Source: an uncultured Chloroflexia bacterium
GTDB lineage: Bacteria; Chloroflexota; Limnocylindria; Limnocylindrales; CSP1-4
Length of the DNA: 64,000 bases
Assembly (NCBI GenBank): GCA_963788685.1
Contig: CAWBHP010000016.1
Coordinates: forward strand, 76,272-140,271
Direction: 5' to 3'
How positions within the stretch are numbered: the first letter of the stretch is position 1; each line of letters starts with the position of its first letter. A model generated the notes under the pieces. It was not told the DNA's origin, ran no database searches, and worked only from the letters and a program-made list of their open reading frames with translations. The translations under genes and the position numbers were made by a program. Shown piece by piece: positions 33,617 to 46,543 of this stretch.

Positions 33617-34338
33617 TCAGCCGGACCGGCGGAGGGATGCGGCAAGCGCTCGCGCGAAGACGCCGGCCGCGTCTTCCACGGACGGGGCTTTGGTCGCTGC
33701 GCCTCGTCGTGTCAGCTCGTTCGCAATCGAGGTGGATTCCACGCCTGGCATCCCGCACGGATCGATCAGGTCGAAATCGGCCAGGTCCGGATCGATATTG
33801 AGGGCGATCCCGTGGTAGCTGACGCCGCGCTCGACGCGGATTCCCAGCGCCCCGAGCTTCCTCGGTGACGGGCCCGGCCGGGTCGCACCAGCAGCCGGGG
33901 TGGCCGTCGCGCCGCGCCGCGGCGACGCCGAACGCCTCACTCGTTGCGACCATCGCCGCCTCGAGCGCCCGAACCAGGGGCCGCAGCAGGAGGCCGCGCC
34001 GCGACAGCGCGATGATCGGATAGGCGACGAGCTGGCCCGGGTCCGTGATACGTGACCTCGCCACCCCGCTCGACCCGCAGGACCTCGATGCCGCGGCGGG
34101 CAAGCTCCGCGGGCGATGCGAGCACGTGAGATTGGTCGGCGTGCTTGCCGAGGGTCAGGACCGCGGGGTGCTCGAGCAGCAGCAACCGGTCGCCGATCGC
34201 GCCGTCGGCACGGGCGGCAGCGAGGCGCTTCTGGAGATCCCAGGCCTCCCGGTAGTCGATCCGGCCGAGCCAGCTCACCTCGAGGGCGTCACCAGCGGAA
34301 TCGTGGTCGGATGCGGGAATGAGCGTGGCAGTATCCAC
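33617..34338 (-). CDS. lipB: Octanoyltransferase (lipoyl(octanoyl) transferase); about 2 frame breaks
   Basis: ORF 33937..34338: WLGRIDYREAWDLQKRLAAAR...LLLLEHPAVLTLGKHAD...VERGGEVTYHGPG | QLVAYPII... | RKLGALGIRVERGVSYHGIALNIDPDLADFDLIDPCG (ORF 33617..33940). Confidence 0.85.
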
Positions 34339-34417: not shown

Positions 34418-35380
34418 TCAGCCAGGACGATCGATGGGCGCCGTCGCGCCGTAGACGTCCTCGTTCAGTTTGTAGGCCCGTTCCTCCATGTCGAGGATCG
34501 TCTGGCGGAGCTTGGCCAGGTCCTCGCTGCCGAGCTTCGTGACCTCGACCAGCTCAAGGACCTCCTGGTCCTTCTCGAGCGCGCCGGCCCAGCCCACCCG
34601 GACGTTGCCGACCCCGGGTGCGTAGTACTTGAGCTGATATGCGTCGGGCTCGTCACGGTTGTACTCGGCGGTCACCAGGACGTCGTCGTAGCAGCCGGCG
34701 GGAACGCAGGTCGCCGAACCCGTCTCGAAGATTCTGGCCCGGTCCGCCCAGCCGACGTCGGGGCCCCAGCCCTGGGAATAGCTGAGACTGCCGAGCCGCG
34801 GCTCCGCCCACATGTAGATCCCGGCCTTGTCTTCCTTGACCCCGGCGATCCAGGCCGGCGTTGCGGTGATCTCGCCTTCCTCGTACTCCTCGGGATACTC
34901 CCCCATGTGCCAGACCGTGCCGTCATCCGCCTGCGCCCAGAACGCGAGCTCCGCCTCGACGAGCTCGCCATCGTGGTAGTCGAGCTCGTACTCGACGACC
35001 GTACGTACGCCATCGATCTCCTTGGTGAGGTCGGAAACAGTGATTACGACGCCGGCAGCAATACGCTCGCCCTCGTCGCCGTTGACCGAGCCCTCGTAGG
35101 TCAGGCGCGTTCCGGGAACAAGCGGGTACCAGGTGTCATTGATCTCGGTCGGGTGGTGGAAAGAGTCGCGGTGGAATGTTTCGGTCACCGACTCGGCGGG
35201 CGCGGGCGGGACGGTGGGCACCGGCGTCGGCGCGACGGTAGGCGCAGCCGTGGCGGAAAGGACGCGGCCGCTGGGTGGCGCCGAGGCGGCGCTGGGCGAA
35301 GGGCCGACGGCCGCTGCGCAGCCCGCCGTCGCCAGCACGATCGAAACACCGACCGCAAGCAAACCCGGGATGGGACGCAT
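34418..35380 (-). CDS. Secreted lipoprotein of unknown function, last gene of the RND operon
   Basis: Intact 320 aa with lipobox VLATAGC and a Pro/Ala/Thr linker, then an acidic Trp/Tyr-rich domain (DTWYPLVPGTRLTYEG...WHMGEYPEEYEEGE...YYAPGVGNVRVGW). It starts 35 nt after the RND-1 stop on the same strand. Confidence 0.55.
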   Translation of the reverse strand: MRPIPGLLAVGVSIVLATAGCAAAVGPSPSAASAPPSGRVLSATAAPTVAPTPVPTVPPAPAESVTETFHRDSFHHPTEINDTWYPLVPGTRLTYEGSVNGDEGERIAAGVVITVSDLTKEIDGVRTVVEYELDYHDGELVEAELAFWAQADDGTVWHMGEYPEEYEEGEITATPAWIAGVKEDKAGIYMWAEPRLGSLSYSQGWGPDVGWADRARIFETGSATCVPAGCYDDVLVTAEYNRDEPDAYQLKYYAPGVGNVRVGWAGALEKDQEVLELVEVTKLGSEDLAKLRQTILDMEERAYKLNEDVYGATAPIDRPG

Positions 35381-35415
35381 GTCACGAACCCTCCGAGAGC
35401 CCCCGGCAACGCAAA

Positions 35416-38400
35416 TCAGGCTGCCTTGATCGCGGCCTCCGTTCCGCTCCCGCCACCCCCACGCCTGGCAAACCGCAGGTAGAGGGACGGGACCACGAAC
35501 AAGTTGAGCAGCGTCGAGGTGACGAGGCCGCCCAGGATGACGATCGCCATCGGGTGCTCGATCTCATGCCCCGGCAGGTCGCCGGCGATCGCCAACGGCA
35601 CGAGGGCCAGACCCGTAGCCAGGGCCGTCATCAGGATCGGCGACAGTCGTTCCCTGGCGCCCCGGAGGACGAGGTCGGGTCCGAGCGGTTCGCCTTCGTA
35701 GCGCTCGAGGTGCTGGAAGTGGTTGATCATCATGATGCCGTTGCGTGCAGCGATGCCCAGCACGGTGAAGAACCCGACGAGCGAGCCCAGCGAGATCACC
35801 CCGCCCCCGATCCACGTGGCAAGCACGCCACCGACGAGCGCTGATGGCAGGGTCAGGAATGACAACGTGGCAAGGCGGGTGCTGCCGAACGAGGCCTGGA
35901 GCAGGAGGAAGATCCCGACCAGGGCAACGAGTGCGAACAGCAGCAGCCGGTCCTGGGCTGTCTGCCGCTCCGCGTATTCACCGAGCATCTCGGGGTGATA
36001 TCCGGCGTCGAACTCGACGCTTGCGAGGGCTGCCTCGACGTCGCGGATGACGGCGCCGAGGTCCCGACCGCTCACGTTCGCGTCGACGTCGATGCGACGA
36101 TTGAGGCCCTCGTGGCTGACGCTGTTGGGGCTCGACACGACGCGGACGTCAGCAAGGTCGCCCAGAGGGACCGGTCCGGCGATCGGCGTGTCGATCGGGA
36201 GGTTCTCGATGTCGGTCACGCTCTCGCGAATGCCCGGCGTCGTCCAGACCATGACGTCGTACGCCTTGCCGGCAACGAAGATGTCACCGACCTCTTCGCC
36301 GGCCAGCAGGACGGACACGGCGCGGCGTACGTCGCCCGGCTTGACCCCGAACTCGAGACCCTTCGCGAGGTCTACCTCGACCTGGACCTGCGGGATCTCG
36401 ACCTGGAGCTCGCGGTGGAGGTCGATGATGCCCGGAATGCTGGACATGGCCTCTTCGAGCTCGGCCGCCTTGGTCCGCAGAACCTCGAGGTCGGGGCCGT
36501 AGATCCGGATGACGATCGCGTCGCTGGAGCCGGTCAGGACCTCCCGGATCCGCTCCTTCAGGTAGGTCTGGACGTCGCGTCGCAGGCCCGGATAGCCGTC
36601 GACGACCTCCTGGATTGACGCATGAGTCGCGTCGTAGTCGACGGCCGGATCGACGCTGATCCAGTTCTCGCCGAAGTCGATGCCGTACGGCTCGTCGGCC
36701 TGGAAGGCCTGGCCGATGTGGGACCCGCAGTTGCGCACACCCGGAATCGAGCGGAGTTCGATGCAGGCGGCCGTCGAGACCCGAACCTCCTCTGCATGAG
36801 AGGTTCCGGGCGCGGTCACCCAGTGCATGAGGAAGTCGCGCTCCTTGAAGTCGGGCAGCAGCGACTGGCCGAGCTGGGAGAAGACGAGGAGTCCCAGGAC
36901 GCTGATCGCCCCGACCATCGCGAATGCCGGCCGCGCCGTTCGGACGATCCGGGCCAGCAACCGCGAGTAGCCCCGCTGCAGGATTCGTGCCACGGGCGAC
37001 TCGCGGCGCTCGACCGGCGCGTTGCGGAGCAGGATGAAGGCCATCGCCGGCGTGACGGTCAGGGCAACGAACAGTGAGGCGAGCACGGCCAGGGCATACG
37101 AGATCACAAGCGGCTGGAAGAAGGCGCCAGACAGGCCTGCGACGAAGAAGACCGGGATGATGGCGACGACGTCGATCAGCGTCGCGTAGATGATCGCGCT
37201 CCGGACCTCAAGCGACGACTCGAGGACGATCGAAGCCGTCGACCGACCGCTGCCGGCGAGGCGATGCTGGCGCAGGCGGCGGACGATGTTCTCGATGTCG
37301 ATGATCGCGTCGTCGACGACGACCCCGACCGAGATCACCAGGCCGGCGATCACCATCGTGTTGATCGTCGTGCCCCGCAGGTCGAGGACGAGGGTGGCGG
37401 CCATCAACGAGAGCGGAATCGCGACGAGGCTGATCAGGGCCGTCCGCCAATCGAACAGGAACAGGACGAGAATGACGAAGACGAGGATCGAGCCGACGAG
37501 CAGGGCCCGGGCGAGGTTGTCGAGGGCGACCGTGATGAACGTCGCCGGCCGGAAGATCGTCGTGTCGATCTCGATGCCCGTCAGGCCCGGACGCAGCTCC
37601 TCCATTGCCACTTCGACGCCGCGTGTGACGTCGAGGGTATTGGCCCATGGGAACTTCTCGACGATGAGCATGATGCCCGGTCCGTCGTTGATGACCGCGT
37701 CGCCAATCAGCGGCTGGAAGTCGGGGACGAGGTTGGCGACATCGGCCAGGGCGACCTTGTCGCCATTGGCGGCGTCGATCTGGACCTTCTCGAGGCTTTC
37801 CGCCGTGATGACCGTCGAGACGTGCTGGATCACGATGCGCTGGTTGGCCGTGTCGACGAAGCCGCCGGTGCCGATCAGGCTGCCGTCCGTGAACCGGAGG
37901 AGTCCGGCGTCGAGGGCGGATGCCGCCGCCTCCATGACCTGGTCGAGCGTGACGCCACGAGCCGCCATCTGCTCGGGGATGACCTGCACCTGGAGCTGCT
38001 TCAGCCGCTCGCCGTAGATCGTGACGTTGGCGACCCCTTCGACGCTTAGCAGGCGGCTCCGGATCGTCCAGTACGACATCATCGAGAGATCCATCATCGA
38101 CACGGTGTCCGATGACAGGCCGATCTTCAGGACTCGGCTCGTAGCCGACAGGGGCTGGATCATGAAGGGCGGGCTGGCCCAGGTTGGCAGCGACGAGGCG
38201 ACGTTCGCGATCCGCTCGGCGACCAGCTGGCGAGCCCGCAGAAGATCCGTTTCGCGCGAGAAGATCAACTCGATCTGCGACAGCTGCGGGACGGACTTCG
38301 AACGCAGGATGTCGAGCCCCTCGACGCCGGCCAGCGCCTGCTCAATGGGCACGGTGACGAGCGACTCGACTTCCGCGGTCGACATCCCGAGCGCGATCGT

Positions 38401-38550
38401 CTGGATCTCGACCCGCGGCGGGGCGAACTCCGGGAAGACGTCGACGGGCACGCTCTGAAGGCGGCTCAGGCCGATGACCATCAATCCCGCAGCGGCCGCT
38501 ATGACGAGGAAGCGGTAACGCAGGCTGGTGGCGACGATGTGGCGCATCAA
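35416..38550 (-). CDS. RND-superfamily efflux transporter permease (AcrB/CzcA-like), copy 1, intact
   Basis: 1044-aa uninterrupted ORF. N-terminus [53 protein letters not shown]4 proton-relay motif [22 protein letters not shown]. 12-TM/two-loop architecture. Confidence 0.9.
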
Positions 38551-38588
38551 GGTGAGGTCCCTCCCTGGTCAGCCTTCAGCCGACCGCC

Positions 38589-39077
38589 TCAATGGCCGCC
38601 GCCGACCCCGGTCTCGACGCCCCACAACTCGGCCGCGCCGGTCGTGACGACGGCGGTCCCGACCGGGGGCCCGGAGGTGAGGATCGCCACGTCCTCCGCG
38701 ATGCGCTCGACCGTGATCGCGGCGCGGAGGTACACGAGCCCCTCCGGGTTCGTGTAGGTCCATGTCGCACCAGTCTTGTCGTAGACGACGGCCGAATAGG
38801 GGACGGCGAGCCGGGCTCCGGACGGTCCGGCCGCGACAGCCGCCGTTGCGATGCCGAGGCGACCGGCCGCCTTGGTCGAGAGGGTCATTCGGCTCAGTCC
38901 CGAGTCCTCATTTTTCTCGACCTTGACGGGCGGATCCTCGGAAACGATTCCTGCCACTCCGCCCTGCGAGCACGCCGCAAGCAGGAACGCGGCGACGCCC
39001 ATGACGATCAGCATCTTTCGGTTGCCGCGGGCCATCGTGATCCCCTCTCGTGTGTTGGTTGGCTTGGACATGTTCAT
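38589..39077 (-). CDS. Minimal periplasmic-adaptor-like lipoprotein (MFP C-terminal beta-barrel region only)
   Basis: 162 aa with lipobox FLLAAC. LSTKAAGRLGIATAAV then directly LAVPYSAVVYDKTGATWTYTNPEGLVYLRAAITVERIAEDVAILTSGPPVGTAVVTTGAAELWGVE. This resembles the first and last segments of HlyD/CusB-type adaptors without the lipoyl and alpha-hairpin parts. The ATG shares one nt with the RND-2 stop. Confidence 0.55.
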   Translation of the reverse strand: MNMSKPTNTREGITMARGNRKMLIVMGVAAFLLAACSQGGVAGIVSEDPPVKVEKNEDSGLSRMTLSTKAAGRLGIATAAVAAGPSGARLAVPYSAVVYDKTGATWTYTNPEGLVYLRAAITVERIAEDVAILTSGPPVGTAVVTTGAAELWGVETGVGGGH

Positions 39078-42000
39078 CAGGCCGGACTCATGCCGGGCTG
39101 CTCGACGAGCTGGGCAGCTGCGTCGGGCTCCGGGCTGGGGCCGGATCGGAAGTAGACAGCGGGAACGAGGAACAGGGTGAACAGGGTCGAGGTTGCGAGG
39201 CCACCGATCATGACGATCGCCATCGGTCGCAGGATCTCGATGCCCGGCATGCCGCCAAGAACGATGAATGGAGCCATGGCGAGGGCCGTGGCAGTCGTCG
39301 TCGCGAGGATCGGCGCCAGTCGCTCCCTCGCTCCTTCGATGATCAGGTCAGGCCCGTGCTGGGCGTCCAGTGCGCCCTCGAGCTCTTGATATCGCTCGTC
39401 CGTCAGGATCGCGTTGCGCACGGCGATCGTGAGGACGGCCACCGTACCGGCAATGACGCCGATCGAGAGGAAGCCCCCGGTCAGGATCTCCCCGAGCGCG
39501 ACACCGGCCAGCGCGACGGGCAGCGCGACGAAGACCATCAGGGCCCGTCGCCAACTGCCGAATGCCGCCTGGAGAAGCAGGAAGATACCGAGCGCTGACG
39601 CGGCCGCGATGGCGATCAGCCGAACGAGGGCCGCCTGTCGCTCGAGGGTCGTGCCGAGGATCTCGGCGCGGTACTCGAGCGGGAACTCGATTCCGGCCAG
39701 GCGGCTCTTCACGTCGGCCATGACGGACCCGAAGTCGCGCCCGTCCACATTTGCAAGGACATCGACGAAGCGGAAGACGCCTTCGCGCCTGATGACCGAC
39801 GGGCCCGGTGCGATGCTGATGTTTGCTACGTCGCCGAGGCGGACCACGCCGCCGCCCAGGGTCGGGATCGGTACATCCGCCACGCTGGACAGGCTGTGCC
39901 GCAGCTCGGGGGCTCCCCAGACGATGACCTCGAAGACCTTCTGCTCTTCGAACAGGAAGCCGACCTCGATGCCCGCGAGCATCGTCGCGGCGCCGCGCCG
40001 CACGTCGCCCGGAGCCACGCCGCGTGCGCCGGCCGCCTCGAGATCGACCTCGATCTTGAGCCGCGGCTCCTCGACTGCGGCCGGGACACCGACGTCGACG
40101 AGGCCGTTGATGCCGCCCAGGGCCTGGGCAACCTCGTCGGCCTTGGCTCGGATGACGCTGTCCTCATGGCCATAGACCCGAACGACCACGTCGTTTCGCG
40201 GGCCCCTGCAGGACCTCGACTCATCCGCTCGGAGGTGTACGTTCCCACGGCGTGACGCAGGCCGGGATAGCCCGCGATCACGCCCTCGATTGCGGCCAGG
40301 GTCCGCGCATGATCGGCCGCCGGATCGATGCTGATCCAGATCTCTCCCGCATTCGCATTCACGACCTGATCGGACGTCAGGGCCCGGCCGATGTGGCCGT
40401 CCGCATTGCGCACACCCGGGATCGTCCGAAGCTCGGTCGCCGCTCGTGCCACGATGCGGTTCATCTCAATGCTGGACGTGCCCGGCGCACCATCCCAGCT
40501 GATGAGCATGTCGCCCTCCTTGAACGGAGGAACGAACGAATCGCCGAGGTGCGGCACGGTTAGCGCGCCCGCGACGACCATGAGGGCAACGGTGATTGCC
40601 GCGACTGCGACGAAGAACGGTCGCGTCCGCTGGAGCAGCCGCGACAGCAGCGATGCGTAGCCGTTGTGGAGCCGTCGCGACAGGGGCGTCGGATGCTGCT
40701 CCCGTTCTGAACCGGACAGCAGGACCATCGCGAGGGCCGGGGTGACCGTCAGCGCCACAACCGTCGAGGCGAGCATCGCCAGCAGGTACGCCACGATAAG
40801 TGACGGCATGAACGCACCCGCTTGCCCGCTGAGGAAGAACAGGGGCGCGATCGCGATCAGGGCGATCAGTGTGGCGAAGACGAGCGCGCGTCGCGGCCGC
40901 AGGACGGCCTCGAGAATGATCGATGCGGCGGGCTGGCCGGCGTCGAACTCCTGGGGATGACGCCCGCGCCGGAGGATCTCGTCGATGCCGACGATGACGT
41001 CGTCAATGAGAACCCCGATCGCGAGGACCATTCCGGCGATGACGATCGCGTTGAGGGTCGCCCCGAGCTGGTTGAGGACGAGTAGCCCGGCCACCAGCGA
41101 CAGGGGAACCGACAACAGCCCGATCAGCCCGGCTCGCCAGTTCCGGAAGAACAGGAACAGAACGGCGGCAGCCAGAACGAGCCCGGCCAGCAACGCGATC
41201 GAGACGCTCCTGGTTGCCTCCTCGATGAAGGTCGCCGGCCTGAAGACGGTCGTATTGACTTCGATGCCCTTGAGACCCGGCGCGAGGGCAGCAAGCGCCT
41301 CCTCGACCGCCCTCGTGACGGCGAGGGTGTCTGCGCCCGGGAACTTCTCGACGACGAGCAGGAGCCCATCGCCGTCGTTGACGACGGCCTCGCCGATCAG
41401 GAGTTGATGATCCTCGACGACCGCGGCAATGTCGCCCAGGCGCACGGTCCTCCCGTTCGTGAACTCCGGTGGGATCCGGATCTGGGCCAGTTCTTCGGGC
41501 GTGCTGATCGGGAAGACGTGCTGCACACCGAGGCGCTGGTTGGGCGTGTCGATGAACCCACCGGTGCCCGGGGTCGAGGCGTCCAGGAATGTCAGCGGCG
41601 AGACCCAGAGGGCGTTGCCCGTGGCCTCGATCACATGCTGAAGCTGGACGCCCTGGGCCCGCATCTTGTCCGGGTCGACCCGGACCTGGAGCTGCCGCTC
41701 CTGGTTGCCGAAGACCGCGACATTGGCGACTCCCGGCACGCCCATCAGGCGCGGACGGACGGTCCATTTGGCGTGGACTGACATTTCGATCAGTGACATC
41801 TCGGCTGAGGACATAGAGACCATCAACAGCCGGCTCGCCGATGAGAGCGGCTGGAGCATCTCGGGTGGCTTGGAAACATGCGGCAGGGCATGCGCCTGGG
41901 TCAGCCGTTCGGCGACGACCTGACGGGCCCGGAAGATGTCCGTGCCCGGTTCGAAGATCATGACGATCGACGACAGTCCGGCGACCGACTCCGAGTGGAT

Positions 42001-42246
42001 CTCGTCGAGGAATGCCACGCCCTGCAGGAGGTCGGCCTCGAGCGGGACCGTGATCAGCTGCTCGACCTCGTCCGCGGAGAGGCCCAGGGCCTCGGTGTGG
42101 ACCTCGACGTAGGGCGCCGTGAATTCCGGAAGCACATCGCGGGGCATGCTGGGAAGCTGTAGGAACCCGAAGAGCAGGGTGATTGCCGCCAGGCCCAGCA
42201 CGAGGCCGCGATACCTAAGGCTCCAACCAACGACCGAACGCATCAT
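39077..42246 (-). CDS. RND-superfamily efflux transporter permease, copy 2 (paralog); one frame break near 40190-40250
   Basis: ORF 39826..42246 (806 aa): MMRSVVGWSLRYRGLVLGLAAITLLFGFLQLPSMPRDVLPEFTAPYVEVHT...TM4 VLAIGVLIDDVIVGIDEILRR. The C-terminal 370 aa come from ORF 39077..40189. Confidence 0.85.
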
Positions 42247-42462
42247 CCTGCAGACCTCCCTGCCGAGTCGGGATGTCGTCGCGGCGCCGGCGCGCGAAAC
42301 CGCACGCCAGGCTCAACGACAAGCCTCTCCCCAATCGCCACGCGCCACTCCCACGCGACATGGCCCCCCAGGTGCACCGGCGCGGCAAGGCCAGTCCGCG
42401 GCGCGGCGTACGAAAGCCCCGGGGTTTTGCCCTCTCCGGCGGATCGGTTCCACCAACCGTGA

Positions 42463-42485
42463 CCGCGACGCCAGATGCGTCGCGG
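42463..42485. promoter_or_regulatory. Perfect 9-bp inverted repeat (CCGCGACGC-cagat-GCGTCGCGG) in the RND/two-component divergent intergenic region
   Basis: Read directly from the sequence. It lies ~217 nt upstream of the RND-2 start and ~52 nt upstream of the -35 box proposed for the kinase gene. It could be an operator or a 5'-UTR hairpin. Confidence 0.35.
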
Positions 42486-42536
42486 ACGCCCCAATTTCCC
42501 TGTCCGCAAACCCCCGCGGAATTCGTAACTAGATCA

Positions 42537-42565
42537 TTGTCGGAAAAAGTACTAGTGCCTATACT
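42537..42565 (+). promoter_or_regulatory. Near-consensus sigma-70-type promoter for the histidine kinase/response regulator genes
   Basis: TTGTCG (42537-42542), 17-nt spacer, TATACT (42560-42565). It sits in a conspicuously A+T-rich island (42520-42580). RBS GAGGGGG is at 42580-42586 and GTG at 42593. Confidence 0.55.
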
Positions 42566-42592
42566 CAAAAAACGCCATTGAGGGGGTCATGA

Positions 42593-43669
42593 GTGATCAT
42601 GGGCGCGGTTCGTAGACGGTTCGGTCTCGGACGCCTGTCGGGCCTCGATCCAGTAGCAACACGCCATCTGGTCGAGGCGGCGACGTACCTGCTCGCGTTC
42701 GCCACGTTCATGCGGGTCGGCGACACCGAAATCCTGCTCCATGCGATGTGGGTAACCGTCGCGCTCGGCGCCTTCGTCTACGGCCTGCGAATCGCCCTGG
42801 CCCGAATCCTGATCGCGGCGATCATTGCGGTGGGCTACTCGTTCGCCAGCACCGCTCTCGGTCGGCCGGCAGAGGTCGAGCCATTGGATTTCTCGGAGTG
42901 GCCGCTGATGGTCGCCATCTCCGTGGTCGTCGCGATCATGGCCGACCTCCTCTCGACATCCGCGAAGCGCTACGCGTTGCTCTATCGGCAGGCTAGCGAC
43001 CGGCTGCACACCGCTCACGAGGACGAACGCGCACGCCTGGCTCGGGACCTCCACGACGGCGTCGGCCAAACGCTAACCGCAGTGATCCTGACTCTGGACG
43101 CGGCGGAGGCGGCCCTGGACCGCACTTCGCCAGCCGCTGAGGCGTCGATCAGGCGCGCCCAGGTGCTCGCGGCATCCGCGCTCGAGGAAGCGCGCGACGT
43201 CGCAATGCGATTGCGCCCGGTGCGAATCCATGAGATCGGTCTCGGCGCCGCCCTGCGAGATCTCGCGGACCGTGCGGGGATCCCTGTCGAGGTCCGGCTC
43301 GACCCGGCGATTCTGCCGGCCGGCCTCCTCGAGGCCGATCGCGAAATCGATGCCTATCGGATCGTCCAGGAGGCGATCAGCAATGCGGCGCGCCACAGTC
43401 GGGGAGCCCATGTCTGGATCGACGGACAGGTCATCGACGGACAGGTCCGGATCGCCATCGGCGACGACGGCGTGGGATTCGATCCGTCCGCGCCGGCCCG
43501 CGGGCTCGGCCTGGACGGCATGCGGGAGCGAGCCGCGATCCTTGAGGGTCGGCTGGAGGTGGCGTCGAGGCCGGCCGAAGGCACGACGGTCGAGCTGTAC
43601 GTGCCCCTTCCGGCCCAGCCGGCCGGCCCAGTCCCGACGACCAAGCCTGTCGCGGGCCCGGTCGTCTGA
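42593..43669 (+). CDS. Sensor histidine kinase, HisKA_3 (NarL/DesK/LiaS-type) family
   Basis: Intact. N-terminal TM helices. H-box ERARLARDLHDGVGQTLTAV. N-box IVQEAISNAARHS. G-boxes IGDDGVGF...GLGLDGMRERA. Confidence 0.88.
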   Translation: MIMGAVRRRFGLGRLSGLDPVATRHLVEAATYLLAFATFMRVGDTEILLHAMWVTVALGAFVYGLRIALARILIAAIIAVGYSFASTALGRPAEVEPLDFSEWPLMVAISVVVAIMADLLSTSAKRYALLYRQASDRLHTAHEDERARLARDLHDGVGQTLTAVILTLDAAEAALDRTSPAAEASIRRAQVLAASALEEARDVAMRLRPVRIHEIGLGAALRDLADRAGIPVEVRLDPAILPAGLLEADREIDAYRIVQEAISNAARHSRGAHVWIDGQVIDGQVRIAIGDDGVGFDPSAPARGLGLDGMRERAAILEGRLEVASRPAEGTTVELYVPLPAQPAGPVPTTKPVAGPVV

Positions 43670-44400
43670 TGGCGGAGCCAAGGGACGGCGGCCCGTTCGA
43701 ATCCCCGGACTCAGGGGTCTCCAAAGGTGGGCCGGATCGCCCGCCGCACGGCTTCGTCTCGGTGTCGGCGCCGATCCGGGTGGGTCTGGTCGACGACCAT
43801 CATCTCGTGCGCGAGGGTCTCCGCCTTGTGCTCGCTGGTGACGACCGGTTCGAGGTCATCGGTGAGGCGTCGACCAAAGCCGACGCCAGCGACCTCGTCG
43901 CGGCCAGCAAGCCCGACGTTCTCGTGCTCGACCTGACGTTTCCTGACGGGGACGCGCTGCCGCTCGTGCGTGACCTGCGGAGCCGGCACCCGGCCCTACG
44001 GATCGTTGTCCTGACCATGCACAGCGACCCCGAGACGGTCCGCCAGGCTCTGGCCGCCGGAGCATCGGGCTACCTGGTCAAAGGAGCCCATTCGCAGGAG
44101 CTGTTCGCGGCGATCCTGGCGGTTGCCCGCGGGGAGCGATATCTCCACAGCAGTGTCACGGGCGCCATCGTCGACGACTCGGTCCGCTGGCTTCAGACGG
44201 GTCCGATGAGCATTCGTGAGCGCGAGATCCTGAGCCTGCTGGCGTCGGGCCATCCGCCGGCCGAGATCGGCCGCCGATTGGCCATCAGCATTCATACCGT
44301 CCGCCGACATATCGCCAACCTGTCGACGAAGCTTGGCCTGCGCGGAACGAACGCCCTGACGCGGTATGCAATCCGAAACGGGCTGGTCAGGGACGAATAG
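43669..44400 (+). CDS. LuxR/NarL-family response regulator
   Basis: The ATG shares one nt with the kinase stop (TGATG). Alternative start GTG 43762. RVGLVDDHHLVREGL...VLVLDLTFPDGDAL (receiver Asp)...VVLTMH. HTH: LSIREREILSLLASGHPPAEIGRRLAISIHTVRRHIANLSTKLG. Confidence 0.88.
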   Translation: MAEPRDGGPFESPDSGVSKGGPDRPPHGFVSVSAPIRVGLVDDHHLVREGLRLVLAGDDRFEVIGEASTKADASDLVAASKPDVLVLDLTFPDGDALPLVRDLRSRHPALRIVVLTMHSDPETVRQALAAGASGYLVKGAHSQELFAAILAVARGERYLHSSVTGAIVDDSVRWLQTGPMSIREREILSLLASGHPPAEIGRRLAISIHTVRRHIANLSTKLGLRGTNALTRYAIRNGLVRDE

Positions 44401-44444: not shown

Positions 44445-45713
44445 TCAGGCGGCCGGCGTCGGGGCCGCGATGACCTCCTTCGGTCCCTGAAGGCCACCGA
44501 CGGAAATCCGGGTCGCGAGTAGCACCGCGACGAAGCCGATCAGCGCTGCCGAGATGAAGATCGCGTGATAGTCGCCGAGGACGTCATGGAAGAAGCCGCC
44601 GAGGAACGCCGCGAGTGCGGCCCCGGCCATGTGGCTCGCGAAGATCCAGCCGTAGATCGTGCCAAGTGAGCCCCGGCCGTAGATGCGTGCGGTCAGATTC
44701 GCGGTCGGGGGCACGGTCGCGATCCAGTCGAGGCCGTAGACGACCGCGAAGAGGAACAACTGCGGGATGTTGAGGATCAGCGGCAGCGCGGCGATCGACA
44801 GCGCCCGGAAGCCGTAATAGACGGCAAGAAGCCGGCGATTGTCGTAGCGATCGGTGAGCCAGCCCGACGCGAGCGTGCCGACGATGTTCATCGTCCCCAT
44901 CAGCGCGACGGCGCCGGCAGCCGTGACCTCGGTGAAGCCGTGCTCGACGGCGTGAGGGATGAGGTGCGTCCCGATCAGGCCGTTCGACGTGTAGCCACAG
45001 ATGAAGAAGCTGCCGGCGAGGAGCCAGAAGTCCCGCGTCCGGGCGGCATCGCGGAGCGAGGTCGTTCGGACGGCTTCGCGTTGATCGGCGGCCTCAGCGG
45101 CGGCATCGCCGGTGGCGCCGAACGCCGCCTGGCCGACGTCCTCTGGCCGATCGCGCATGAGCAGCAGGACCGGCAGCAGCATGAGCCCGACGGCCGCAGT
45201 CAGGACCGCGACAGCCATCCGCCAGCCGCTGTCGAGGATGACTCCCTGGAGCGTCGGGATGAAGATCAGCTGGCCGGCCGATGAGGCCGCCGCGAACGCT
45301 CCAAGGATGATCCCGCGGTGGGTCCGGAACCAGCGTAGCGCGATCGTGGCGCCGAGGACATTCGTGACCGCGCCCGTTCCGACGCCCGTGACGATCCCCC
45401 AGAACAGGTGGAGCTGCCAGAGCTCGGTCATCAGGGCGAGGGGAATGAGGCCGCCGACGATGAGGACGAGGCCACCGAGCATGACCCGCTTCGGGCCGAA
45501 CCGGTCGATCAGGCCGCCGGAGAGCGGCGCACCGAGACCGAAGGCGAGGATGCTGACGGCGATCGCGAGGGAGATGCTGGCCCGGTCCCAGCCGAACTCG
45601 GCCTCGAGCGGCCGGATGAGCACGCCCGGCGCAGCACGTACGCCGGCTGCGGCGAGCAGGACGAGGAACGTGACGACGACGATGAGCCAGGCGTAGGGCA
45701 GCCGACGGAGCAT
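44445..45713 (-). CDS. MFS transporter
   Basis: MLRRLPYAWLIVVVTFLVLLAAAGV...12 predicted TM helices...GGLIDRFGPKRVMLGG (MFS loop 2-3 motif). Intact. ATG 45713 lies within ORF 44445..45791. Confidence 0.8.
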   Translation of the reverse strand: MLRRLPYAWLIVVVTFLVLLAAAGVRAAPGVLIRPLEAEFGWDRASISLAIAVSILAFGLGAPLSGGLIDRFGPKRVMLGGLVLIVGGLIPLALMTELWQLHLFWGIVTGVGTGAVTNVLGATIALRWFRTHRGIILGAFAAASSAGQLIFIPTLQGVILDSGWRMAVAVLTAAVGLMLLPVLLLMRDRPEDVGQAAFGATGDAAAEAADQREAVRTTSLRDAARTRDFWLLAGSFFICGYTSNGLIGTHLIPHAVEHGFTEVTAAGAVALMGTMNIVGTLASGWLTDRYDNRRLLAVYYGFRALSIAALPLILNIPQLFLFAVVYGLDWIATVPPTANLTARIYGRGSLGTIYGWIFASHMAGAALAAFLGGFFHDVLGDYHAIFISAALIGFVAVLLATRISVGGLQGPKEVIAAPTPAA

Positions 45714-45751
45714 GCCCGCGACTGTAGCGCGAACCCTCCGAATGCGAGCCG

Positions 45752-46543
45752 CTACCGGGGCGTGGCGTCGGGGTCGATCGGGCGGACCCATTCGTTACAA
45801 GACCAGCTCAGCGTCCCCGACAGGACGGCCGGGTAGCCATCGGGTGGAGCCTTGTCCGGTTCCGCGAATGCGATTCGGGTGAATTCGACGCGGCCGCTGC
45901 GGTCGCCGTCAATTCGATCTACAAAGTCGCCAGGTCCATCCCAGAACGGCGCCGAACCCTTGTCCTCGACGGAGGGTCGGATCCAGATGTGGACGACCGG
46001 TCGACCTTCTGGATCCCCGGCCAACACGGTCAACGACGCGCCGACGACGGCCGTCCCGACGCTCCCGACGACGTCCCCGCCGATGCCCGCGATTCCCTCC
46101 GCGTCCAGCTCCGACTGACATGTGGTGAGCGCATCGCCCCGGCTGGTGTAACCGTCCAGCCTGTCGATCGACACGCTCAACGTCCCCGGAGCCTCGAGGA
46201 CCACCGAGTCGTGGAACTCGGGCCGGAACGCCGGCTCGACGGCCCAACCGATTCCGACGCCGATGACAAATGCTGTGCCGGCGAAGAAGATCGATCGCGC
46301 GGCCGCGTGACCGCTCGTATCCCGCGATTTCGCAAGGATGGCGGCGACCACGGCCATCACCGCGAGGATGCTCCCGACGACAATCCCGCCGATGAGGGCG
46401 AAGAGCGAACCCATGCCGCCCTGGTTAACCCCGGACGCGATGGAACCGCCCAGATAGGCTCCGACGGCAAGAGCCAGCACGAGGCTAATCAGCATCGGCT
46501 TCGACATGCCCGTGGGCGGGCGATGAACAGTGACGGGGTCCAT
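45752..46543 (-). CDS. Membrane-anchored hypothetical protein
   Basis: Intact. Three N-terminal TM helices (PMLISLVLALAVGAYLGGSI; LFALIGGIVVGSILAVMAVVAAIL; IFFAGTAFVIGVGIGWAV) then a soluble ~170-aa domain. Start is 46543 or 46507. Confidence 0.5.
   Translation of the reverse strand: MDPVTVHRPPTGMSKPMLISLVLALAVGAYLGGSIASGVNQGGMGSLFALIGGIVVGSILAVMAVVAAILAKSRDTSGHAAARSIFFAGTAFVIGVGIGWAVEPAFRPEFHDSVVLEAPGTLSVSIDRLDGYTSRGDALTTCQSELDAEGIAGIGGDVVGSVGTAVVGASLTVLAGDPEGRPVVHIWIRPSVEDKGSAPFWDGPGDFVDRIDGDRSGRVEFTRIAFAEPDKAPPDGYPAVLSGTLSWSCNEWVRPIDPDATPR

Follow-up and report, generated by a model that had tools for sequence, protein, structure and literature searches.

How might a proton-driven pump from the RND (resistance-nodulation-division) superfamily work in an envelope without a classical outer membrane? 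This question is raised by a locus at 34418-42246 in a stretch of 64,000 nucleotides from an uncultured Chloroflexia bacterium (GenBank assembly GCA_963788685.1, contig CAWBHP010000016.1, positions 76,272 to 140,271 of the forward strand; Limnocylindria, CSP1-4), the whole of which is hereafter called the window. Two paralogous pump genes, RND-2 and RND-1, are separated here by the gene of a small lipoprotein, the mini-adaptor, and followed by the gene of a second lipoprotein of 320 amino acids (aa). The cassette of RND-2, mini-adaptor and RND-1 is widely conserved yet undescribed, and it occurs in single-membrane soil bacteria. It is reasonably probable that it encodes a proton-driven RND export machine for an envelope without a classical outer membrane, with RND-1 as the motor, RND-2 as its partner and the mini-adaptor as a cut-down adaptor.

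The cassette and its distribution

The four genes of the locus in the window are as follows.

39077..42246, minus strand: RND-2 permease, the faster-evolving paralogue, split in two frames (ACR_tran matches on both pieces).
38589..39035, minus strand: mini-adaptor lipoprotein, a 148-aa precursor from its probable start and about 126 aa when mature (family alignment, Shine-Dalgarno sequence, hhalign, TriA/TriB profile match, Foldseek).
35416..38550, minus strand: RND-1 permease, the putative motor, 1044 aa, intact open reading frame (ORF) (ACR_tran, intact proton relay).
34418..35380, minus strand: 320-aa accessory lipoprotein, predicted LolA/YmcC-like open beta-barrel with a C-terminal helical hairpin (AlphaFold2 model, Foldseek).

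Each of these genes is preceded by a GGAGG-like ribosome-binding site and the intergenic gaps are about 35-42 nt; because of the short gaps and the individual ribosome-binding sites, the four genes are considered to form one operon. A preliminary description of this DNA had already drawn such an operon, and the ORF map of the minus strand agrees with it. Its account of RND-1 as an intact frame of 1044 aa is likewise sustained by a match over essentially the whole ACR_tran model (PF00873; residues 6-1027 against positions 2-1020 of 1021, E 2e-211), and the RND-2 stop codon (39079-39077) does have one base in common with an ATG at 39077, as had been pointed out.

A scan with one genome per species yielded 43 loci. 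The order RND-2, mini-lipoprotein, RND-1 was found in all 41 informative loci, that is, those with enough upstream sequence, and these are spread over three phyla. The remaining two are L043, which ends at a contig edge, and L046, from Myxococcota, which has the classical layout of an outer-membrane factor (OMF), a full adaptor and a single RND gene. The four-gene order first seen in the window thus recurs in its three-gene core, while the 320-aa gene, present after RND-1 in most Chloroflexota loci, is absent from the cassettes of Actinomycetota. The hosts belong to Limnocylindria and Anaerolineae in Chloroflexota, to Gaiellales, Thermoleophilia, Pseudonocardia-like bacteria and Intrasporangiaceae in Actinomycetota, and to Dormiibacterota. 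Among Intrasporangiaceae are the cultured species Oryzobacter telluris, O. terrae and Knoellia sinensis, the Oryzobacter genomes being complete, and because of these cultured and non-pathogenic hosts genetic and structural work on the cassette is possible. The small lipoprotein had 372 relatives in a first search, typically of 144-148 aa, and in a library clustered at 50% identity its family counts 1806 representatives at E ≤ 1e-10 and 511 at E ≤ 1e-30; the family is thus large, and it is unannotated. Literature searches found no description of an RND-2/mini-lipoprotein/RND-1 cassette.

Some loci have peculiarities of their own. In a Chloroflexia metagenome-assembled genome (MAG), a second, inverted copy of the cassette (L019, 14488-20330, minus strand) lies about 1 kb from the first and consists of an RND-1-like gene, a short adaptor fragment and an RND-2-like gene. 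Two loci, L008 and L016, come from MAGs labelled Steroidobacteraceae, and their RND-1 and RND-2 sit on very short branches inside Limnocylindria/Chloroflexia, L016 next to L003. Because the pumps branch within these groups, the two contigs are probably mis-binned and not of proteobacterial origin. In two Oryzobacter loci (L033, 1025-5026; L038, 1080-5163), the cassette is preceded by divergent genes for a GT2-GtrA protein (polyprenol-phosphate glycosyltransferase-like) and a PMT_2 protein (ArnT/PMT-like), and L033 also encodes a 430-aa protein without any family directly upstream of RND-2.

Origin of the two pumps

Both pumps are RND permeases of AcrB/CusA architecture with full-length ACR_tran matches, the two RND-2 pieces together covering model positions 9-626 and 676-1018. 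Among the NCBIfam models TIGR00914 (CusA/CzcA) scores best, with 561.1 bits for RND-1 and 252 and 160 bits for the RND-2 pieces, although neither pump reaches its curated cut-off for heavy-metal-efflux (HME) RND pumps (701.45 bits). The solved structures closest to RND-1 are ZneA (E 1.4e-98) and CusA (1.4e-91), ahead of pumps of the HAE-1 family (hydrophobe/amphiphile efflux). Its nearest Gram-negative relatives, 52-55% identical, are encoded on Methylomonas and Hymenobacter plasmids, where they stand in TolC-adaptor-RND operons.

Aligned with each other and placed in a tree, as had been proposed, RND-1 and RND-2 are 47% identical and form one clade. In the maximum-likelihood tree this clade has a support of 100, as has the monophyly of RND-2. 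The sister group of the clade is formed by the pumps of Methylomonas and Hymenobacter, and together with these diderm relatives it makes up a separate group, which relative to AcrB, MdtB and MdtC is placed on the CusA side. The RND-1 and RND-2 subtrees carry the same lineage groups. Judged from this phylogeny, a single early duplication is shown to have produced both paralogues, and it would have preceded the spread of the cassette, because RND-2 is monophyletic and the subtrees share their lineage groups. The locus is also shown to be derived from a tripartite system of TolC, adaptor and RND pump that falls on the heavy-metal-efflux-like (CusA/ZneA) side.

In AcrB, the reference for numbering, the proton relay consists of D407, D408, K940, R971 and T978. 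RND-1 has the DD pair in transmembrane helix 4 (TM4) and both R and T in TM11; in TM10 an R substitutes for the Lys. In the lineage of the window, RND-2 has DD in TM4 (VLIDDVIVGIDE), R in TM10, and R and T in the TM11 segment RERLAPILAT. The Asp-Asp pair that had been noticed in TM4 is thus present in both pumps, and the divergence reported for RND-2 just downstream is also real, E-N of RND-1 being D-E in RND-2. ZneA has IDFGIIVDGAIVVMEN where RND-1 has its TM4 DD pair. Acidic residues of RND-1 align, by manual count on the alignment, with ZneA positions 602, 610, 654 and 658, which we tentatively take to be zinc ligands.

An adaptor reduced to one domain

The small lipoprotein was first described as a 162-aa protein encoded at 38589-39077. 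An ORF with a lipobox (FLLAAC) does occupy this interval, but translation probably starts at ATG 39035 instead of ATG 39077, which gives 148 aa. A Shine-Dalgarno sequence, GAGAGGGGA, lies 6 nt upstream of ATG 39035, and most homologues start there. At their N-terminus, longer gene calls carry the seemingly conserved string REGITM, which is in fact the Shine-Dalgarno sequence in translation.

The protein consists of a lipobox and the membrane-proximal domain of membrane fusion proteins (MFPs), also called periplasmic adaptor proteins, and ends in a conserved tail, AELWGVETGVGGGH. When the profile of the small family was aligned with full adaptors by hhalign, it matched residues 225-313 of the 314-residue Methylomonas adaptor (probability 98%, E 6.5e-14) and residues 343-411 of the 414-residue Hymenobacter adaptor (E 3.3e-12). 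The tail is common to both sides of these alignments (AELFGTEFGVG in the adaptors, AELWGVETGVGGGH in the mini-adaptor), and the Hymenobacter adaptor has its membrane-proximal Pfam CusB domain 1 at 329-399, where the mini-adaptor aligns. In the Protein Data Bank, a fused TriA-TriB adaptor is likewise matched by the profile, at the C-terminus of each of its two halves. Homology of the mini-adaptor, as far as it can be read from sequence, is visible only against adaptors of the right subfamily: hhalign with E. coli CusB was not significant (probability 2.9%), a Pfam scan of 47 members of the small family gave no family and only scattered chance matches, and NCBIfam TIGR01730 reached 15.8 bits against a cut-off of 94.9, at C-terminal model positions only. 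The AlphaFold2 model of the mini-adaptor has a per-residue confidence (pLDDT) above 90 for residues 60-150. In Foldseek its 15 best matches are all adaptors, among them CusB, ZneB, MexA, AcrA and a membrane-proximal construct of SilB, over 56-71 columns with root mean square deviations of 1.2-3.1 Å, and BesA is found lower in the list. Neither an alpha-hairpin nor a lipoyl or beta-barrel domain is present in the mini-adaptor. The suggestion that the small protein is a stripped-down adaptor is thus upheld by the Foldseek, TriA/TriB and hhalign results.

Intermediates show how this form arose. A full adaptor with its coiled-coil is found in Myxococcota. Lipoproteins of about 225-270 aa, which combine the C-terminal domain with a barrel-like middle part and the N-terminal strand but have neither hairpin nor lipoyl domain, are found in Anaerolineae, and such intermediate adaptors make up 28 of the top 150 library matches. 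Everywhere else the minimal form, of about 120-130 aa when mature, is found. The adaptor is therefore shown to have been cut down stepwise, from the full form to barrel plus membrane-proximal domain and then to a lipid-anchored membrane-proximal domain only. Because Anaerolineae already have both pumps, the duplication of the pump gene would have preceded the final shrinking of the adaptor.

The extreme C-terminus of the mini-adaptor is typed by lineage, as GVGGGH, [TFL]GVGK, FKVGKY or ELGIE. It is always preceded by an invariant AEL[WFY]G motif, which also occurs in the full adaptors of diderm relatives.

Outer-membrane factor and envelope

No TolC/OprM-like gene had been noticed in the window, and a sequence search confirms this. 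With five TolC-family proteins and seven full adaptors as queries, the 64-kb window gave no match except the small lipoprotein itself. Neither an OMF nor a full MFP was found within 10 kb of any monoderm locus, the Myxococcota locus L046 serving as the positive control of the search. At the locus itself the OMF has been lost.

As to the envelope itself, Actinomycetota are monoderms, and for them the earlier supposition of an envelope without a classical outer membrane is undisputed. For Chloroflexota it holds less firmly: their envelope type is debated, and their outer-membrane gene pattern is as in monoderm Terrabacteria (PMC8871954).

The accessory lipoprotein

Cys21 of the 320-aa lipoprotein does not vary among 43 homologues, and sequence-family searches with the protein in Pfam and NCBIfam gave no match. 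In its AlphaFold2 model (pLDDT 83) an open beta-barrel is followed by a helical hairpin at the C-terminus. Foldseek ranks 3fzx, of YmcC-like fold, first (E 4e-7, TM-scores 0.36 and 0.51), and further matches are found to the LolA superfamily, VioE and nitrobindin, with TM-scores that are modest throughout (0.32-0.51). The predicted fold may thus be called LolA/YmcC-like.

The protein had been regarded as a dedicated but orphan lipoprotein. Dedicated it appears to be: all three homologues that were sampled regardless of context lie directly after the cassette, including a tandem-duplicated form of 554 aa. It is not an orphan, however, but an accessory of the cassette with a restricted distribution, and in some organisms it is fused to the adaptor. 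In one natural fusion, a lipoprotein-like sequence (51% identity over 252 residues, E 6e-79) is inserted into an adaptor at the point where classical adaptors hold their barrel, lipoyl and hairpin domains. P0376 and P0285 represent two other orders of fusion between lipoprotein and adaptor. An RND gene stands next to each fusion gene, and P0285, on the longest contig, lies between two RND genes. Because of these natural fusions there is strong evidence, drawn from gene structure, that the lipoprotein would work in physical contact with the adaptor.

Double-length forms of the lipoprotein, of about 550-560 aa with two tandem domain copies, are encoded at the same position after the cassette in L054 (7923-9662), P0127 and P0131-P0140.

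Regulation and substrate

A divergent two-component system lies beside many Chloroflexota copies of the cassette. In the window it is arranged as follows.

42247..42592, no strand assigned: intergenic control region from which the pump operon and the two-component system diverge (ORF map; same layout in L001-L003, L055 and L056).
42593..43669, plus strand: HisKA_3 sensor kinase (Pfam HisKA_3, HATPase_c).
43669..44400, plus strand: NarL/LuxR-type response regulator (Pfam Response_reg, GerE).

Judged by its sequence, the kinase is membrane-embedded at its N-terminus without a sizeable extracytoplasmic domain, and it adjoins the cassette in those Chloroflexota loci where a kinase was detected. 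Beyond the response regulator, a major facilitator superfamily (MFS) transporter of the lactate/oxalate-formate type is encoded at 44445-45791 (minus strand). It is also found in L001 and may be part of the conserved neighbourhood.

The candidates for the substrate are a metal cation and an amphiphile or lipid. The former is indicated by the heavy-metal-efflux-like ancestry, by the ArsR/SmtB and P-type ATPase genes that adjoin distant relatives (about 40% identical) and, tentatively, by the acidic residues aligned with the four ZneA positions; the latter by the carrier-like fold of the accessory lipoprotein, by the kinase without a periplasmic sensor domain and by the glycosyltransferase neighbours in Oryzobacter.

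The amphiphile clues might be carried further, to an MmpL-like exporter that builds the envelope instead of detoxifying the cell, handing lipids, glycolipids or lipoprotein-like molecules over to the LolA-like lipoprotein and thence to the wall. Open barrels of the LolA/YmcC/VioE type belong to a fold class that typically holds hydrophobic ligands, and, if the predicted fold is right, its fusion to the adaptor in some organisms, the membrane-embedded kinase and the polyprenol-phosphate-type glycosyltransferases (GT2-GtrA, PMT_2) beside the Oryzobacter cassette would all suit such a task. Nevertheless, the accessory lipoprotein is missing from every Actinomycetota cassette, the nearest characterised relatives of the pumps are the metal pumps ZneA and CusA, the more distant relatives adjoin metal-type genes, and the TM-scores of the fold matches are low. 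An envelope-building role is thus somewhat unlikely, although it fares best among the alternatives.

Unequal paralogues

The two pumps have been kept under different constraints. In RND-1 the motifs VVDDAIID[IV]EN, AARNG and RERLxPILMT are nearly invariant, and the transmembrane domains are its most conserved parts. RND-2 has evolved at about twice the rate of RND-1 in the tree. Within boundaries transferred from AcrB numbering, and therefore approximate, its conservation equals or exceeds that of RND-1 in the subdomains PN1, PN2a, DN and DC, whereas in the transmembrane domains it reaches about two thirds of the RND-1 level. Conservation within RND-2 is highest in the segment STPGTGGFIDTP, which aligns with a region of AcrB that we take to be the inter-protomer hairpin.

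The relay itself has been lost from RND-2 in some lineages. The DD pair is damaged (AD, SD) in two Actinomycetota genomes, and in six Intrasporangiaceae-type genomes RND-2 lacks the DD pair, the TM10 Arg and the TM11 Arg. These relay-less copies are nonetheless full length, with a ratio of nonsynonymous to synonymous substitution rates (dN/dS) of 0.21-0.33 against 0.11-0.15 for RND-1, the dS estimates being rough in such G+C-rich genes. A proton-uncoupled RND-2 with intact oligomerisation and docking surfaces is best explained as a partner of RND-1. A heteromer of RND-1 and RND-2 is therefore favoured by the comparison of the genes, because a relay-dead RND-2 has been kept under selection and its docking surfaces are conserved. 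As with the MdtB2C-type pumps, the paired RND genes are a conserved feature, which here is found at all 41 informative loci and goes back to one duplication; the full adaptor and OMF that belong to that type were found neither in the window nor at any monoderm locus.

Alternatively, RND-1 and RND-2 could form two independent homotrimers with different substrate ranges, which use a common mini-adaptor and are merely co-regulated in the operon. Both paralogues do have the full relay (DD, TM10 Arg, TM11 Arg and Thr) in the window and most Chloroflexota, and both are full length and under purifying selection, as this requires. It is difficult, however, to reconcile with the six Intrasporangiaceae-type genomes, where RND-2 could not be proton-driven alone and yet stays intact, with a pair that is never separated in the 41 loci, and with the relaxation of the RND-2 transmembrane domains beside strongly conserved docking subdomains. 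Independent homotrimers are accordingly judged unlikely.

The frame break in RND-2

In the window, RND-2 (39077-42246) is not one gene frame, as it had been listed, but two ORFs in different frames, of 806 aa (39826-42246) and 370 aa (39077-40189). Compared with L001, the closest relative (about 85-92% identical), which has an intact RND-2, it contains two single bases too many, one at about 40197/8 and one at 40218, some 20 nt apart. In a tblastn search, the L001 protein matched the window with 92% identity over residues 1-677 and 89% over residues 679-1055 in two frames, and in relatives RND-2 is some 1055 aa long. In the ancestral frames the region of the break reads ERM-VEVLQGPAK-DVVVRVYG, which has a residue-for-residue parallel in RND-1. 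In four independent soil runs, contigs about 95% identical were found, none with either extra base (40197/40198, 40218). No sequencing run matching the window turned up, the best sharing 0.17 of the sampled words, so that the break was compared only with these relatives of about 95% identity.

Nearby, a lipB-like (lipoyl/octanoyl transferase) gene at 33698-34338 (minus strand) is split over three frames with respect to the intact 216-aa gene of L002 (82-96% identity), and in L001 this gene is broken once; these breaks look like assembly indels in a housekeeping gene. The RND genes are broken into many pieces at several loci from similar long-contig MAGs. Because the extra bases are absent from every relative and the neighbouring housekeeping gene is also frame-broken, the break in RND-2 is very likely an assembly error. 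A programmed frameshift is ruled out by two separate one-base insertions about 20 nt apart that are missing in all relatives. That RND-2 is a true, very recent pseudogene in the organism of the window, with only RND-1 and the mini-adaptor active, agrees with the deposited sequence, and no run of the exact strain contradicts it, but it is quite improbable in view of two pieces that are otherwise open and 89-92% identical to the intact L001 orthologue, the contigs without the extra bases from four independent runs, the lipB-like gene in three frames and the multiply fragmented RND genes of similar MAGs.

A soil run deposited as metagenomic RNA-Seq (X3) also contains contigs about 95% identical over RND-2 (39700-40700 of the window). 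RND-2 may thus be expressed in relatives, although carry-over of DNA might also account for these contigs.

Proposed mechanism

We return to the proton-driven export machine for an envelope without a classical outer membrane, which would work as follows. RND-1 would be the conserved proton-coupled motor. RND-2 would assemble with it into a hetero-oligomer, which is most likely trimeric like MdtB2C and to which RND-2 would contribute mainly its periplasmic docking and porter surfaces. The lipid-anchored mini-adaptor might clamp the porter domains and stabilise or activate the assembly, without forming a bridge to an exit duct, and the substrate would leave through the funnel directly into the wall zone. 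In Chloroflexota, the LolA/YmcC-like lipoprotein would sit on the adaptor in place of the lost upper adaptor domains and either give substrate to the pump or receive it. Expression would presumably be set by the membrane-embedded HisKA_3/NarL two-component system.

Several observations weigh against this proposal. The RND-2 relay is complete in the window and in most Chloroflexota, where a homotrimer alone would also be possible. It is still debated if an outer membrane exists in Chloroflexota (PMC8871954). The clues to the substrate conflict, metal-type ancestry and neighbours pointing one way, the lipid-carrier-like fold and the sensorless kinase the other. Lastly, RND-2 is frame-broken in the deposited record.

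Comparison with known systems

The pairing of the pumps has its closest parallel in MdtABC-TolC of E. coli and MuxABC-OpmB of P. aeruginosa, where likewise two adjacent paralogous RND genes of one operon go back to an old duplication; MdtB and MdtC are 50% identical, RND-1 and RND-2 47%. Of the two paralogues in MdtB2C, one has a proton relay that is more important than its partner's (PMC4338810), so that the roles of the paralogues are unequal there too, as they seem to be in RND-1 and RND-2. On the other hand, MdtBC belongs to HAE-1, whereas RND-1 and RND-2 lie on the CusA/ZneA side and result from an independent duplication. MdtABC works with a full adaptor and TolC, whereas the cassette has no OMF at the locus and has the gene of a membrane-proximal-domain adaptor between its pump genes. 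In one lineage of the cassette, unlike in MdtBC, the relay is missing completely from one paralogue, which is a natural example of a transporter copy retained after the loss of its energy-coupling residues.

By descent the cassette is nearer to CusCFBA and ZneCAB, which include the solved structures closest to RND-1 and whose adaptors are matched by the mini-adaptor in their membrane-proximal domain (CusB domain 1). RND-1 differs from them in TM4, where it has the HAE-1-typical DD pair and not the DFG...DG of ZneA, and in staying below the HME cut-off (561 against 701 bits), a metal being only a candidate substrate. The cassette also lacks their OMF and their hairpin, lipoyl and barrel domains. 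The CusF-like domain at the C-terminus of SilB parallels the separate periplasmic partner of the cassette, which is fused to the adaptor in some organisms; the partner is a predicted LolA-like barrel, however, while CusF is a small protein of different fold. That SilB has an extra C-terminal domain has been described together with BesA of Borrelia burgdorferi (BesABC), an adaptor without the hairpin (PMC4446572). Like the mini-adaptor, BesA is naturally reduced, but it has retained lipoyl and barrel domains beside the membrane-proximal one and functions, in a diderm, together with the outer-membrane factor BesC, whereas only the membrane-proximal domain is left in the mini-adaptor.

The MmpS-MmpL systems of mycobacteria, such as MmpS5L5, also combine a small accessory protein with an RND-superfamily transporter without a Gram-negative outer membrane. 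The comparison with them drawn in the preliminary description holds as a functional analogy but does not extend to family membership, since the pumps of the cassette are full AcrB/CusA-type transporters and the small protein has no MmpS homology. The MMPL match of RND-2 is weak and partial (E 3e-8, 201 residues) against 6.5e-116 for ACR_tran, and the small protein has no Pfam family.

The role of adaptors in Gram-positive envelopes has been called a significant knowledge gap (PMC4338810), adaptors without a hairpin, though expected in Gram-positives, had yet to be found there (PMC4446572), and a large phylogenetic survey of HME, NFE (exporters of nodulation factors) and HAE-1 pumps left out Actinobacteria, Chloroflexi and Firmicutes (PMC10872679). 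The cassette family supplies the missing case, an adaptor reduced to the transporter-binding domain and always accompanied by two paralogous pumps, and thereby documents the stepwise remodelling of a tripartite machine in lineages without an outer membrane. It can serve as a minimal system, provided by nature, in which to ask what a pump adaptor does in the absence of an outer membrane. A bolder form of the proposal, which we hold only tentatively and regard as possible though on balance doubtful, is an obligate hetero-oligomer in which RND-1 is the sole proton motor, RND-2 a partly or fully 'dead' subunit for structure and the handling of substrate, the mini-adaptor a one-domain activator and the LolA-like lipoprotein a hand-over module. 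If this is true, the core task of an adaptor would be the activation of the transporter and not the bridging of two membranes, the LolA-like lipoprotein would replace the upper adaptor domains in handing over the substrate, and the cassette would represent a fourth architectural class of RND transporters beside the tripartite pumps, MmpS-MmpL and SecDF.

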